NCBI GenBank assembly: GCA_963663995.1
Contig: OY760660.1
Location: forward strand, 1,470,001-1,502,000
Reading direction: 5' to 3'
Source of the DNA: Erysipelotrichaceae bacterium
GTDB lineage: Bacteria; Bacillota_I; Bacilli_A; Erysipelotrichales; Erysipelotrichaceae
Length of the DNA: 32,000 bases
The notes under the pieces are model-generated. The model was not told the origin of the DNA, searched no databases, and saw nothing but the letters and a program-made list of their open reading frames with translations. The first letter of the stretch is position 1. Each line of letters opens with the position of its first letter. The position numbers and the translations under genes are program-made. Below are positions 27,463-32,000 of the stretch, one piece after another.

Positions 27463-29046
27463 ATGGAAAAATATGATGTCATTGTTGTAGGTGGCGGAAT
27501 GGCTGGATTGACCGCAACCAGTTATTTAAGTTCAAAATACTCGACTATTCTCATTGAAAAAGAATCAACTCTAGGTGGACTTGTTGGTTCATTTGAACTT
27601 GATGGTTTTGTATTTGACAAAGGTGCAAGAGGAATCATAGATTCTGGAATTGTTATGCCGATGTTAAGACAACAAGGCGTTGAAATAGATTTTTTAGAAA
27701 ATCCAATTAAGATGATAGTTGAAGAAGAATCTGTTGATTTGAAAAACAAAGAAGATATTATAAAGTACGGTGATTTGCTTAAAAGAGTTTATCCAGATCA
27801 AATAAGTGAAATTGATCAGATTGTTAAAGAAATTCAAAAAGTAATGACTTATATGGACGTTTTATATGGAATAGAAAACCCATTATTTATGCCTAAACCA
27901 TATTCAAAGGAATATTTAAAAGAAACTTTATTGCCATGGATGATTAAATTTTTACCAAACATTTATAAGGCAATGAAAATGATGGAACCGATAAATGTAT
28001 ATCTAAAGAAAATTTCAAAATCAGAGAGTTTAGTTGATATTATTACCCAACATTTCTTTGAAGAAACACCAACTTTTTTTGCATTATCTTACTTCTCACT
28101 CTTTCTTCAATATCAATATCCTAAAGGTTCAACTCAAAGTTTAGTTGATGCGCTTATAAAAGTTATTTTAAACAACCACACAAAAATTCATACGAGTGAA
28201 GAAGTTTTAAGCATTGACATAAAAAACTCTGTACTTTCAACAAATCTGAACTCATATCAATTTAAAAAGATTGTTTGGGCAGCTGATGTAAATTTAATGT
28301 ACAAACTCATTAATCAATCTGATTTAGAAAGCAGAAATTTAAGAAATCTAGAGAAGATGCTTCAAAAATATAAAAGTTTAAAAGGAGCAGATTCTATATT
28401 AAGCACTTTTGTACAATGTGAAATAGATCCATCATATTTTAAAGAATTATTTGGACCCCATTCATTTTATACTGAACGAAAAAAGGGACTGAGTCATATA
28501 AAATTAGAAGATATTAAAAATGGTCAAGATTTCATTAATGATAAGAGAGAAATATTTAAATGGCTAAAAGATTATCTCTTATATAATACCTTTGAAGTCT
28601 CTATACCTGTTTTAAGAGATGCAAATCTCGCGCCAAAAGGGAAAACTGGTTTAATAATATCAACGCTTTTAGATTATGGATTAACTAAACATATCGAAGA
28701 AAGTGGCTATTATGAAGAATTTAAGGATTTTATTGCGGATGAAATTATTCAAATATTTAGTAAAAAGATTCCACAATTAAAGAATAAGTGTTTAAAGGTA
28801 ATTGTTTCAACACCACTTACCATACAAAAAAAGACTTATGCTCATGAAGGAAGTGTTTCAGGATATTCTTTTTCTAATCATCCGTTCCCTGCAGAGTATC
28901 AATTTTTAAAAGTAAGTCAATCTGTTAAAACACCATTTAAGAATATTAAACAAGCAGGACAATTTGCCTTCAACCCAGCAGGTGTCCCAGTGGCAATATT
29001 AACGGGTAAACTAGCAGCTGATCAAATCATAAAGGAACTAAAATAA
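27463..29046 (+). CDS. FAD-dependent oxidoreductase, phytoene-desaturase/CrtI-like (COG1233-type) family (527 aa)
   Basis: N-terminal Rossmann dinucleotide motif KYDVIVVGGGMAGLTATSYL ... IEKESTLGG. C-terminal FAD segment typical of the CrtI/amine-oxidase superfamily (IKQAGQFAFNPAGVPVAILTGKLAADQI). Confidence 0.75.
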   Translation: MEKYDVIVVGGGMAGLTATSYLSSKYSTILIEKESTLGGLVGSFELDGFVFDKGARGIIDSGIVMPMLRQQGVEIDFLENPIKMIVEEESVDLKNKEDIIKYGDLLKRVYPDQISEIDQIVKEIQKVMTYMDVLYGIENPLFMPKPYSKEYLKETLLPWMIKFLPNIYKAMKMMEPINVYLKKISKSESLVDIITQHFFEETPTFFALSYFSLFLQYQYPKGSTQSLVDALIKVILNNHTKIHTSEEVLSIDIKNSVLSTNLNSYQFKKIVWAADVNLMYKLINQSDLESRNLRNLEKMLQKYKSLKGADSILSTFVQCEIDPSYFKELFGPHSFYTERKKGLSHIKLEDIKNGQDFINDKREIFKWLKDYLLYNTFEVSIPVLRDANLAPKGKTGLIISTLLDYGLTKHIEESGYYEEFKDFIADEIIQIFSKKIPQLKNKCLKVIVSTPLTIQKKTYAHEGSVSGYSFSNHPFPAEYQFLKVSQSVKTPFKNIKQAGQFAFNPAGVPVAILTGKLAADQIIKELK

Positions 29047-29481
29047 ATGTTAGATTTAAATGCACAAACAGTTAGAGATCTCTGGTCAAAAACGTATAAC
29101 GATAAAGATAAGCCAGACTGGTCGCATATCTTTCCTTACTATGATGAGAATATTGTTTTCATGGATTCCATTCAAAAAGTCGAGGGGTTTGAAGACTTTA
29201 AGGCGATGTGTGAGCGATTAACTGATCGTTGCGAAACCCTAAGCATGGATTTGTCTGAAGTTATTAAAGAAGGTGATCTCATTATCTTAGAATGGAAAAT
29301 GACCATGGAATTTAAAAAGACACCAAGCACTCCGATTTTCGGGGCAAGTTTTTTACGTTTAAATGACAAAGGGAAAATTGTTTCACAACGCGATTATTAT
29401 GATTTATGGGGTGACATCTTTAACGGTATACCAAAATTCAAACCTCATTATCGAAAATTTATGAAGAAACGATTTGGTTAA
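29047..29481 (+). CDS. SnoaL-like / NTF2-fold protein (144 aa)
   Basis: Size and pattern typical of SnoaL_2/NTF2-like cone folds (YDENIVFMDSIQKVEGFEDF ... GDLIILEWKMTMEF ... GASFLRLNDKGKIVSQRDYYD). The start is the very next base after the upstream stop codon. Confidence 0.6.
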   Translation: MLDLNAQTVRDLWSKTYNDKDKPDWSHIFPYYDENIVFMDSIQKVEGFEDFKAMCERLTDRCETLSMDLSEVIKEGDLIILEWKMTMEFKKTPSTPIFGASFLRLNDKGKIVSQRDYYDLWGDIFNGIPKFKPHYRKFMKKRFG

Positions 29482-29483
29482 TC

Positions 29484-30398
29484 ATGAACTATCCAGATGA
29501 ACTTATTTTTTTAAAGAATAGAAATGCAAAGCAACGAATTAGTCAATTTTCACTTAATGGGAAAACGATTGTATTAACGGGTGCTACTTCAGGAATCGGA
29601 CGAGAAACAGCTTTTCGTCTTGCTCAAGATTCAATACATTTAGCTATTATCATAAGAGATCTTCAAAAAGGAATGGAATTAAAGAGTTCGATTGAACATT
29701 TAACGGAATCAAAAGTTAGTGTTTTTATTGCTGATTTCTCAGATTTAAAATCTGTTTCAAAAGTTGCGGATGAAATAAAAACAAAATTAGATCATATAGA
29801 TGTATTAATACACAATGCAGGAATTCATTCGACAAAAAAAATAATAACAAAAGATGGGTTTGAACAATGCTTTCAAATTAATTATTTAGCATCTTATTTA
29901 CTAACTCAAAAACTTTTGCCATTATTAAATACATCTAAAGAGTCTACGATACTATATGTTAATTCTGAAGGACATCGATTTTCAAGTTTTGATGTTACTG
30001 ACTATAATTTCAATAAACATCACTATACTGGATTAAGGGCTTACGGATCTTCAAAAACAGCTCAGCTATTGAGTGTTTTAGTATTAAATGAAGATAAAAA
30101 TTATAAAAACATGAGATTTTTGTGCATGCATCCTGGGGATGTTAAAAGCGATATTGGCAAAAATAATGGGTTCTTGTATCGTCTATTTAGTAAATTATTT
30201 ATACAACCAATGCTCAGAGATCCGAAAACAAGTGCGATAGCTATTCATTGTTTATTATCAGATCCATTTTATCGAGAGCAACATGAACAATTCTATCATT
30301 TAACAATACCAGAAATCGCAGCGAATCATGCGCGAGATTATGTTAAAGCTCAAGAGCTTATCGAACTATCGAATAAACTAATAAATGATTTTATTTAA
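29484..30398 (+). CDS. Classical short-chain dehydrogenase/reductase (SDR), retinol-dehydrogenase-like (304 aa)
   Basis: Cofactor motif TGATSGIGRETA, NAG (HNAGI), catalytic YGSSK (YxxxK). 2-nt gap to the upstream gene. Confidence 0.85.
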   Translation: MNYPDELIFLKNRNAKQRISQFSLNGKTIVLTGATSGIGRETAFRLAQDSIHLAIIIRDLQKGMELKSSIEHLTESKVSVFIADFSDLKSVSKVADEIKTKLDHIDVLIHNAGIHSTKKIITKDGFEQCFQINYLASYLLTQKLLPLLNTSKESTILYVNSEGHRFSSFDVTDYNFNKHHYTGLRAYGSSKTAQLLSVLVLNEDKNYKNMRFLCMHPGDVKSDIGKNNGFLYRLFSKLFIQPMLRDPKTSAIAIHCLLSDPFYREQHEQFYHLTIPEIAANHARDYVKAQELIELSNKLINDFI

Positions 30399-30465: not shown

Positions 30466-30480
30466 GTTGTTTTATACAAC
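30466..30480. promoter_or_regulatory. Inverted repeat GTTGT-TTTAT-ACAAC upstream of the MarR gene (candidate operator)
   Basis: 5-bp arms with a 5-bp spacer, 35 nt upstream of the preferred MarR start. Followed by TAATAAT (a -10-like element) and AAGAGG. Confidence 0.3.
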
Positions 30481-30514
30481 AAAACATGTAATAATACGAA
30501 TAAAGAGGTTTATT

Positions 30515-30937
30515 ATGCTATTTTGTGATATTAGTATTCAACATAGATACGGTAAAAATAAATTGGATGAAATGCTTTTTAAGTATGGTTTAGACTGGTC
30601 AAGAATGACAGTTATTCTAGTCGTGTCAGAAGTACCAGGAATAGAGCAAAATAAATTAATTCCTTTTTTACAGACAGATAAAGCTAATGTTTCAAAATTG
30701 TTGAAAAAGATGGTTAATGAGAACTTAATCATTTTAAATCATAATGCAATAGATAAACGAATTAACAAGTGTTATTTGACAGAAAAGGGCAATGAATTCG
30801 TGCCTAAAATGAATGAAATTTTAAGTGCTTGGGAATCGATTCTTTTTTCAGGAATAAAAGAAGATGAGCTTCAAGTTTATCTAAAGGTTAGTCAGAAAGT
30901 ATCAAATAATCTTTTGCCAAATTGGGAGAATAAATAA
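30515..30937 (+). CDS. MarR-family winged-helix transcriptional regulator (140 aa from ATG 30515)
   Basis: MarR-like wHTH: GIEQNKLIPFLQTDKANVSKLLKKMVNENLIILNHNAIDKRINKCYLTEKG. AAGAGG at 30503-30508 supports ATG 30515 rather than the track's TTG at 30467. The stop overlaps the next ATG (TAATG). Confidence 0.8.
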   Translation: MLFCDISIQHRYGKNKLDEMLFKYGLDWSRMTVILVVSEVPGIEQNKLIPFLQTDKANVSKLLKKMVNENLIILNHNAIDKRINKCYLTEKGNEFVPKMNEILSAWESILFSGIKEDELQVYLKVSQKVSNNLLPNWENK

Positions 30938-32000
30938 TGGGAATTCAAGGGAAAACTCTTTATGGGTTAATTTTATCTGGTGCAAATAATATTGTAGTAA
31001 ATGAAAATTTGTTAAATAAGATAAATGTTTATCCAGTACCCGATGGGGATACAGGTACAAATTTATCGCTTACAATGAATCAGATTCTTCTTGAGGCAAA
31101 AGAATTTGAACATGTTTTTATGCAAATCGAAAATATTGCAGAGATTGCTCTTAAAAATGCATATGGTAATTCAGGTATGATTTTTGCAGAATATTTAAGT
31201 GGTATGTCAGATTCTTTAATAAACCAAAAAGAGATACTAAAAATTGATTTGATAAAAGCCTTTAAAAATGCGTATTCTAAAGCACATAAATCGGTAGCAC
31301 AACCTAAAGAGGGAACAATTTTAAGTGTTATGAAGATTTGGTCCGAATTATTAGAAACCTCAATACATGATGAATTAGAACACTTATTTAACAGTAATCT
31401 GGAAAAACTTTATAAGTCAGTCGAAAATACAAAAAATCAAATGAAAATTCTTAGAGACAATAATGTTGTAGATGCCGGCGCTATGGCTTTCTTCTTTTTT
31501 ATTGAAGGAATGACTAAGTTCTTGAAAAATGGATTATCAATGAATCTCGAATTCAAAGCATCAAAAATGGAATTGATTAGTGAACCGTTAAAGTCCCTTG
31601 ATATTGGTGCTTATAGATATTGTTGTCAATATCAAGTAAAAGGAAATATTGATGTTAAAGAACTAGAAAAAGAGATTAATCCATATGGTGATTCAATTGT
31701 CATCCATCAAGATAATTCAAACATTAGTATTCATATGCATGCAAATGATCCTGCAATGCTTATGCAAAAACTTTTATCTATAGGTCCTGTTCTAAAACAC
31801 AAGATAGACGACATGTATTTGCAAACTCATATGAAGCATAAGCCAAAATCCAAAATTGCTATTTTAACTGATTCTATTGCAGATATACCTTCTACACTAA
31901 TTGATGATAACCAAGTCGCTGTATTACCTTTAAATATTATTATCGACTCAATTGTCTATAAGGATAAAATCACGATGACAGCTGACTACTTCTATAATTA
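30937..32000 (+). CDS. Dak2 (FakA-like) domain fused to a DegV (FakB-like) fatty-acid-binding domain; 3'-truncated by the window edge
   Basis: My own translation is open from ATG 30937 to the window end. The Dak2 part has VYPVPDGDTGTNLSLT, AYGNSGMIFAEY, PKEGTILSV, NNVVDAGAMAF. The FakA central-domain-like part has YRYCCQY ... YGDSIVIHQDNSNISIHMHANDP. From about residue 307 there is a DegV N-terminus: KIAILTDSIADIPSTLIDDNQVAVLPLNIIIDSIVYKD. It is absent from the ORF track because no stop is reached. Confidence 0.8.
   Translation, partial: MGIQGKTLYGLILSGANNIVVNENLLNKINVYPVPDGDTGTNLSLTMNQILLEAKEFEHVFMQIENIAEIALKNAYGNSGMIFAEYLSGMSDSLINQKEILKIDLIKAFKNAYSKAHKSVAQPKEGTILSVMKIWSELLETSIHDELEHLFNSNLEKLYKSVENTKNQMKILRDNNVVDAGAMAFFFFIEGMTKFLKNGLSMNLEFKASKMELISEPLKSLDIGAYRYCCQYQVKGNIDVKELEKEINPYGDSIVIHQDNSNISIHMHANDPAMLMQKLLSIGPVLKHKIDDMYLQTHMKHKPKSKIAILTDSIADIPSTLIDDNQVAVLPLNIIIDSIVYKDKITMTADYFYN

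Follow-up and report, generated by a model that had tools for sequence, protein, structure and literature searches.

Can the two components of a fatty-acid kinase, the FakA kinase and the fatty-acid-binding DegV protein FakB, work as a single polypeptide chain? To our knowledge, almost all work on fatty-acid kinase concerns the two-protein systems of Gram-positive pathogens. The question is raised by a gene lying at the end of a 32,000-nucleotide stretch of DNA (hereafter the window) from an Erysipelotrichaceae bacterium, which corresponds to positions 1470001-1502000 of C1, the single contig of a closed 1.95-Mb genome rated 100% complete. A first-pass annotation, made from the letters of the window, had noted that an open reading frame (ORF) opening at position 30937 begins like FakA and then switches to the N-terminus of a DegV domain instead of the usual C-terminal domain of FakA (FakA_C), so that kinase and lipid-binding subunit appeared to be fused. 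We find the fused Dak2-FakA_M-DegV architecture to be a near certainty, and we favour, with moderate confidence, the reading that this ORF would encode a self-contained single-chain fatty-acid kinase or, strictly, a kinase for a lipid carboxylate.

When the frame is followed past the window end into its own genome, it runs without a stop or a frameshift to 591 amino acids (C1:1500937-1502712, ending at the equivalent of window position 32712), which excludes the possibility that a break just beyond position 32000 separates two genes. The ORF does open where it had been placed, and every motif quoted for it was found at its claimed position: PDGDTGTN at residues 35-42, GNSGMI at 77-82, EGTILSV at 125-131, VVDAGA at 177-182, YRYCCQY at 226-232, IHMHANDP at 265-272 and KIAILTDSIADIP at 306-318. 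Dak2, FakA-like_M and DegV domains follow one another in one chain in that order, each above its Pfam cut-off (Table 1). The part of the protein encoded within the window already matches Dak2 (2.6e-30), FakA-like_M (5.3e-18) and the first 49 positions of the DegV profile (4.5e-09), and in the whole protein the DegV match (PF02645) covers profile positions 1-279 of 280 with 211 bits against a cut-off of 27, alongside 229.3 bits for TIGR00762 (cut-off 99.7). The switch seen in the truncated gene is borne out: Dak2 and middle domains of the kinase type continue into a genuine DegV domain, complete in length, that replaces FakA_C. The whole-protein FakA models are matched over the N-terminal part only and below their cut-offs (YloV, TIGR03599, 229.5 bits against 396.1; FakA_VfrB, NF038248, 133.1 against 975), and the FakB1 equivalog NF038249, at 116.2 bits, also remains under its cut-off of 350.

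To compare the fusion with known enzymes residue by residue, we took the roles of individual positions from the work of Shi et al. (2022) on Streptococcus suis FakA/FakB (PMC10848957). The Mg/ATP aspartates of the FakA Dak2 domain, D37/D39 in S. suis and D38/D40 in Staphylococcus aureus (PMC10848957), are matched by D36 and D38 of the PDGDTG motif, and these two residues are invariant in the 26 fusions that were aligned, as are GNSG 77-80 and D179. The middle domain of S. suis FakA has a C1H3 zinc site made of C244, H289, H291 and H226, the first three of which affect activity when mutated (PMC10848957); their equivalents C229, H266 and H268 are likewise invariant in the 26 fusions. In S. suis FakB2 the carboxylate of the fatty acid is held by T61, S93, R170 and H264 (PMC10848957). 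Here the T61 site is S365 (T or S in 31/31 fusions), S393 and S397 are both present, the latter in all 31, and R170 corresponds to R477, again an arginine in 31/31. An AlphaFold model of the fusion, with a predicted local distance difference test score (pLDDT) of 86.4 and a predicted template-modelling score (pTM) of 0.74, places the DegV domain close to fatty-acid-loaded FakB structures (TM 0.81-0.90) and the Dak2 domain close to S. aureus FakA_N (TM 0.89, root-mean-square deviation [rmsd] 1.6 Å). A docking prediction with the Dak2 and DegV domains as separate chains gave 0.00 against a mark of 0.32; it was run without controls and is evidence neither way.

If the protein is indeed self-contained, one may ask whether it occurs where no partner is available. 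In its own genome the fusion is an extra paralogue and not the housekeeping kinase, since the search for stand-alone genes that the first-pass annotation had proposed turned up a canonical FakA (a 547-amino-acid frame with Dak2 and a 279-bit FakA_C match) and two stand-alone DegV (fakB) genes. Twelve genomes from other phyla that carry the fusion, of which two are closed chromosomes and most are metagenome-assembled genomes (MAGs) of unstated completeness, give a uniform result: in 12/12 the only DegV matches are the fusions themselves. Canonical FakA_C is absent from the same 12/12 genomes, in which three weak PF13684 matches fall inside fused DegV domains. FakB docks on FakA_C through L181 and R202, and the R202A mutation abolishes binding (PMC10848957). 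The R202 position is basic in 19/19 stand-alone DegVs, is Arg in only 9/31 fusions and aligns to L510 here, counts that are descriptive and carry no statistical test as the sequences are related; L181 aligns to F488, with its hydrophobic character retained. Because the fusion is the sole system in 12/12 genomes, has kept the carboxylate site and has a relaxed docking arginine, the fused protein probably needs no partner.

Such an enzyme would work as follows. The C-terminal DegV domain would hold the acyl chain, with the carboxylate at S365/S397/R477, and the Dak2 domain would bind Mg-ATP via D36/D38 and transfer the gamma-phosphate, to yield the acyl-phosphate that PlsY uses. FakA and DhaK/DhaL offer an analogy for the assembly, in which the middle domain may join two chains into a dimer and each DegV domain would then lie opposite the Dak2 domain of its partner chain. 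The genome does encode PlsY, which consumes acyl-phosphate, as well as a FabF-type ketoacyl-ACP synthase. In the same closed, 100%-complete genome, PlsX was not found by either PF02504 or TIGR00182, nor was an acyl-ACP thioesterase by PF01643. If the absence of PlsX holds, this organism would have no recognisable source of acyl-phosphate other than Fak-type enzymes.

The fused architecture had been presented in a way that implied novelty, but it is common and was already on record. A search of a large protein collection listed at least 120 clusters with 41-79% identity, 119 of which cover 98-100% of the query and one, partial, 80%; all of those listed carry Dak2, FakA-like_M and DegV and, where named at all, are called only "DegV family protein". 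A later preprint (bioRxiv 10.1101/2021.02.16.431466) credits Erni et al. (2006) with a report of Dak2-DegV fusions and places such fusions near heliorhodopsin genes. We also scanned one genome per species and sorted the 80 loci kept with domain-trimmed hidden Markov models (HMMs) built in this analysis. Fused loci make up 32 of the 80, scoring 49.9-348.5 bits with the DegV model (the lowest being contig-cut copies) and 0 with the FakA_C model, and the remaining 48 are canonical FakA loci with 195-336 bits for FakA_C and 0 for DegV; the fusion studied here scores 463 as DegV and 0 as FakA_C. The fused loci come from about ten phyla, namely Bacillota, Bacteroidota, Aminicenantota, Acidobacteriota, Thermodesulfobacteriota, Spirochaetota, Pseudomonadota, Gemmatimonadota, Krumholzibacteriota and Eisenbacteria. 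In a tree of the Dak2 and middle regions (a quick IQ-TREE search, unrooted) a single branch, with a support of 100 in the Shimodaira-Hasegawa-like approximate likelihood-ratio test (SH-aLRT), parts all fused from all canonical rows. Given this branch and the spread over phyla, the fused family appears to be an old lineage, separate from canonical FakA, and not a local accident. Our gene is a further member of a known, catalogued family.

Within the order to which the window belongs the fusion is patchy, being present in 13/151 genomes and 4/68 genera, and in 7/7 genomes of its own genus. Two versions are found in that genus, one with 51-72% identity to our fusion (G010, G106, G140) and one with about 35% (G018, G048, G086, G112), which suggests either two sub-lineages or horizontal replacement. 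Some copies are irregular. The one in G100 has two in-frame stops (one TGA and one TAG), and in a Treponema MAG (L018:2415-4267, plus strand) the fused gene is broken within Dak2 into ORFs of 123 and 494 amino acids, a break due to a frameshift or a sequencing error, or the mark of a pseudogene. A Krumholzibacteriota MAG (G161, the genome of locus L036) has two near-equal fused copies, C8:332558-333379 and C9:68139-68960, both in 654-amino-acid frames.

What the fusion may do in this bacterium can be approached through its neighbours. It belongs to an eight-gene run in which genes overlap or are separated by gaps of at most 19 nucleotides, in the order MarR, fusion, DUF1295, DUF2177, TudS-DUF1722, B12-binding protein, MacB/FtsX permease and ABC ATPase, and the next gene past the ABC ATPase is on the opposite strand. 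The DUF1295 and DUF2177 genes (202 and 145 bits), whose stop and start codons overlap, both lie downstream of the fusion, past the window end. The TudS-DUF1722 protein has the architecture of RudS, a characterised tRNA 4-thiouridine desulfidase, and the B12-binding protein aligns with CarH and cobalamin photoreceptor-type chains, with EH and E-x-H-x-x-G motifs and without a DNA-binding domain. The 72%-identity relative (locus L010) has the same operon, with lysS followed directly by MarR. The B12, MacB and ABC genes recur as a set there and in L011, and this set could act as a light- or cobalamin-gated exporter. One of the more distant Firmicutes loci has a photolyase 2.3 kb away in addition to B12/ABC genes. 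Convergent to the operon end, on the minus strand (L009:11399-14447), lie genes for a class II-like (B12-type) ribonucleotide reductase large subunit of 836 amino acids and a PduO-type cobalamin adenosyltransferase; cobalamin-related genes are clustered around this end of the operon.

The core of fusion, DUF1295 and DUF2177 is kept in L010, L012, L015 and L016, its order varying in the more distant Firmicutes loci, and the two DUF genes stand beside 0/49 canonical fakA genes. Canonical genes of Firmicutes have a usual context of their own, with what we take, from the familiar yloU-yloV-recG arrangement, to be an Asp23-like gene upstream in 34/49 loci and recG downstream in 28/49, whereas either neighbour is seen in 0/36 fused loci. 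Heliorhodopsin genes have DegV, DUF1295 and DUF2177 as their signature neighbours (bioRxiv 10.1101/2021.02.16.431466), and in Chlamydomonas DUF1295, DUF2177, DUF1365 and cyclopropane-fatty-acid synthases are encoded by SAK1-dependent genes induced by singlet oxygen (PMC4067076). A photolyase gene is present elsewhere in our genome. Judging by these neighbours, the fusion would head a membrane-lipid and light/ultraviolet (UV)-stress operon and not a fatty-acid scavenging unit. Since the core is a published neighbour of heliorhodopsin and is linked to light and singlet oxygen, its likely role would be to re-activate fatty acids while membrane lipids are remodelled or repaired under photo-oxidative stress.

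As to regulation, the start of the fusion gene overlaps the stop of a MarR-family gene in TAATG (30935-30939), as the first-pass annotation had it. The regulator likely belongs to the MarR superfamily, although its Pfam matches are sub-threshold (MarR_2 24.4 bits against 27, MarR 23.8 against 24.6) and the ten MarR-type NCBIfam models that match it (1e-13 to 2e-3) are all under their cut-offs; its homologue in L010 carries PF01047. The gene probably starts at ATG 30515, which has a ribosome-binding site (RBS; AAAGAGG, 30502-30508) and aligns with the start of the 141-amino-acid L010 homologue. A TTG at 30467 was considered as an alternative and is disfavoured, as it sits inside the palindrome described next and the ATG has both the RBS and the conserved start.

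The inverted repeat that had been noticed upstream of the MarR gene (GTTGTtttatACAAC, 30466-30480) is real and has a conserved footprint. TAGTTGT-N5-ACAAC is invariant between our genome and L010, where it extends to a perfect 7-5-7 palindrome, and the spacer and the flanks have diverged. The repeat is likely an operator, because its arms are kept in a 72%-identity relative while spacer and flanks have drifted. It is unique as an exact copy in 18 kb, the only match with one mismatch lying in the flavoenzyme ORF described below and being within chance expectation. It overlaps a weak -35 (TTGTTT) and an extended -10 (TGtAATAAT, 30487-30495), which were read by eye and not given by any tool; a consensus promoter scan found 56 sites where 60 were expected, and the by-eye site was not among them. 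It is a reasonable inference that MarR represses its own operon from the palindrome, in which case it would control all eight genes, the fusion being the first enzyme gene among them. The coupling to MarR and the palindrome are real, but they are lineage-specific.

It had also been suggested that this coupling recalls FabT, the MarR-type lipid regulator. This analogy finds no support: no FabT-specific model matched the regulator in a search of NCBIfam profiles, and MarR adjoins the fusion only here and in L010, the regulator beside the fusion trio of genes being of TetR type in L013, LexA type in L015 and AraC type in L011. In L015, a locus from Oscillospiraceae, the LexA-type repressor (LexA_DNA_bind plus Peptidase_S24; L015:8856-9809, plus strand) lies directly upstream of fusion-DUF1295-DUF2177, which hints at SOS/UV control there.

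Several observations weigh against a self-contained, light-related fatty-acid kinase. The fourth zinc ligand of the S. suis middle domain, H226, aligns to P217 and is not conserved, and the carboxylate-holding FakB H264 is N574 here (His in 24/31 and Asn in 5/31 fusions; Asn occupies this position in 4/19 stand-alone DegVs as well). The whole-chain model fits the FakA crystal 7W7H poorly (TM 0.33-0.36, rmsd 24.9 Å), with agreement in domain order alone. In some Firmicutes loci (L011, L012) stand-alone DegV genes lie next to the fusion or close to it, so cooperation with FakBs may be possible there. Our literature search found no paper assaying any fused Dak2-DegV protein, and kinase activity and substrate therefore rest on homology. 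With regard to light, DUF1295 and DUF2177 are not adjacent to the fusion in distant fused loci (24-31% identity), regulation by light is suggested by gene content alone, and heliorhodopsin (PF18761) has no match in the closed genome, a result that is uninformative since the control matched in no genome either.

The alternative that survives best is that the protein is a variant FakA still in need of separate FakBs, its fused DegV domain acting, like FakA_C, as a docking site, as a recipient of fatty acid passed on by FakB, or as both, and not being loaded with fatty acid directly. FakA_C is itself a degenerate DegV-like fold, proposed by Shi et al. to receive the fatty acid from FakB (PMC10848957), and a weak 32-bit match to FakA_C (PF13684) does fall inside the fused DegV domain; the two stand-alone DegV genes in the same genome, and those near the fusion in L011 and L012, could supply the partner. 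However, stand-alone DegV is absent in 12/12 genomes of other phyla. The fused domain, moreover, retains the invariant carboxylate arginine that FakA_C is without, and its affinity is clearly with DegV (211 bits against 32 for FakA_C, or 463 against 0 with our own HMMs). We consider this alternative unlikely, if worth keeping in mind.

Another possibility concerns the ligand: the protein may act on some other carboxylate lipid (e.g. an oxidised, methylated or isoprenoid-derived acid) that the neighbouring membrane enzymes produce or modify, or may be mainly a lipid sensor. This would agree with the tight coupling to DUF2177 and DUF1295, which has a steroid-reductase/ICMT-like fold, with the replacement of the FakB histidine by Asn in this subfamily, and with the presence of a canonical Fak system in the genome; in S. 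aureus, FakA is known to affect signalling (PMC5539427). Nevertheless, the carboxylate residues at the pocket entrance are conserved and the DegV fold is close to fatty-acid-loaded structures, and, since the fusion is the sole system in other phyla, the simplest role there would be general fatty-acid activation. We hold a different ligand or a sensory role to be rather improbable.

The model put forward in the first-pass annotation was that of a five-gene unit, in which a flavoenzyme, an NTF2-like protein and a short-chain dehydrogenase/reductase (SDR) encoded upstream would, together with the MarR regulator (held to be FabT-like) and the fusion, modify and activate exogenous lipid. The flavoenzyme is CrtI/CrtD-like, with 527 amino acids, and the three upstream genes sit tightly between lysS and MarR. 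In favour of the model, the five genes share a strand, and a terminator-like hairpin was found ahead of the flavoenzyme gene, after lysS, but not between the stop codon of the SDR gene and MarR; the theme is plausible too, as other bacteria have flavoenzyme and SDR genes like these in lipid-modifying clusters that are induced by light. Yet the trio is missing from L010 although the rest of the operon is syntenic, and it is absent beside every other fused gene examined. A 116-nucleotide gap that holds the conserved operator parts SDR from MarR, and, as said above, nothing specific to FabT was matched. Since it is lacking at the same place in a 72%-identity relative, the trio looks like a recent insertion, and the five-gene unit is very doubtful. 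Finally, that two genes were joined by a sequencing or assembly error can be discarded as next to impossible, as the same continuous frame recurs in more than 120 independent clusters and in the 36 loci examined, the genome is a closed single contig and the domain junction is conserved.

Table 1. Coordinates of the features discussed (window positions unless a contig or locus is named).
Feature	Coordinates	Strand	Remarks
Fusion gene, first 354 codons	30937..32000	+	Start ATG 30937; window end cuts DegV domain at residue 354
Dak2 (DhaL-like, ATP/Mg) domain	31033..31515	+	Residues 33-193, 105 bits
FakA-like middle (dimerisation/Zn) domain	31612..31830	+	Residues 226-298, 63.9 bits
DegV (FakB-type fatty-acid-binding) domain, start	31852..32000	+	Full domain residues 306-586
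MarR-family winged-helix regulator, 140 amino acids	30515..30937	+	Stop TAA 30935-30937 overlaps fusion ATG
Palindromic operator candidate, TAGTTGT-N5-ACAACAA	30464..30482		33-51 nucleotides upstream of MarR ATG
Upstream trio	27463..30398	+	CrtI/amine-oxidase-like flavoenzyme 27463-29046, SnoaL/DUF2358 29047-29481, SDR 29484-30398
B12-binding protein, 207 amino acids	L009:8851-9474 = C1:1504850-1505473	+	Stop overlaps MacB/FtsX permease start
PlsY (acyl-phosphate consumer)	C1:410345-410887	-	Present in genome

How does the protein compare with characterised systems? With the two-component FakA/FakB of Staphylococcus and Streptococcus (PDB 7W7H, 7RM7, 4X9X; PMC10848957, PMC9136124) it shares the Dak2 aspartates, the C/H/H zinc residues and the T/S-S-R carboxylate site, and the domain folds superpose. 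In contrast to that system there is one chain instead of two, a true DegV takes the place of FakA_C, Leu replaces the docking arginine and Asn the FakB histidine, and the scores remain under the FakA, YloV and FakB1 cut-offs; the Asp23/RecG synteny of canonical fakA is absent and the clade is separate. The fusions reported by Erni et al. and the heliorhodopsin-associated DegV/DUF1295/DUF2177 genes are alike in architecture and in the gene order fusion-DUF1295-DUF2177 (bioRxiv 10.1101/2021.02.16.431466). Here, however, no heliorhodopsin was detected (with an uninformative search control), and a MarR gene stands at the head of the set, which continues into RudS-type, B12-binding and ABC exporter genes. 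A more distant parallel is offered by DhaK/DhaL, two-chain in Escherichia coli and, as DhaK, single-chain in Citrobacter freundii, where an EDD-fold substrate module and a Dak2/DhaL nucleotide module likewise occur in split and fused forms, and weak matches to the DhaL and dak_ATP models are indeed seen in the fusion. Compared with C. freundii DhaK the domain order is reversed, with Dak2 first, the substrate module is a lipid-binding DegV and not Dak1, and a middle domain comes in addition. The operon also resembles the light-responsive operons with RudS (TudS-DUF1722), photolyase and B12-dependent LitR/CarH regulators (PMC11417400) in bringing RudS-architecture and CarH-like B12 genes together, but its B12 protein is without the MerR DNA-binding domain and its gene overlaps that of a MacB-type permease, and the regulator is of the MarR family.

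Taken by itself, this window provides one more example of an already catalogued family. What is added here is the separate clade, the 12/12 genomes in which the fusion is the sole system and the loss of the docking arginine, with which self-sufficiency becomes a testable hypothesis. A wider reading can be offered, tentatively, as something we hold possible but would not yet call probable: that fused Dak2-M-DegV proteins are self-sufficient kinases, organised as DhaK/DhaL-like dimers in which the acid is phosphorylated within the protein's own DegV domain; that in many Gram-negative phyla (Gemmatimonadota, Pseudomonadota, Bacteroidota, Thermodesulfobacteriota and others) they may be the sole salvage route that forms acyl-phosphate; that FakA/FakB would be a split derivative, in which the DegV domain in cis degenerated to a docking domain; and that in our bacterium the fusion may have been recruited to a MarR-controlled light/UV operon that recycles fatty acids from photo-damaged lipids. 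It is debated whether the fatty acid meets ATP while on FakB or after transfer to FakA_C, and a natural enzyme of one chain, with a competent DegV pocket where FakA_C would otherwise stand, would offer a simple test system for that debate. Fatty-acid salvage through acyl-phosphate would, moreover, extend to phyla in which it has not been considered, and the fixed partnership with DUF1295 and DUF2177, which are singlet-oxygen-responsive in algae and found beside heliorhodopsins, may give a handle on the function of these two membrane proteins.

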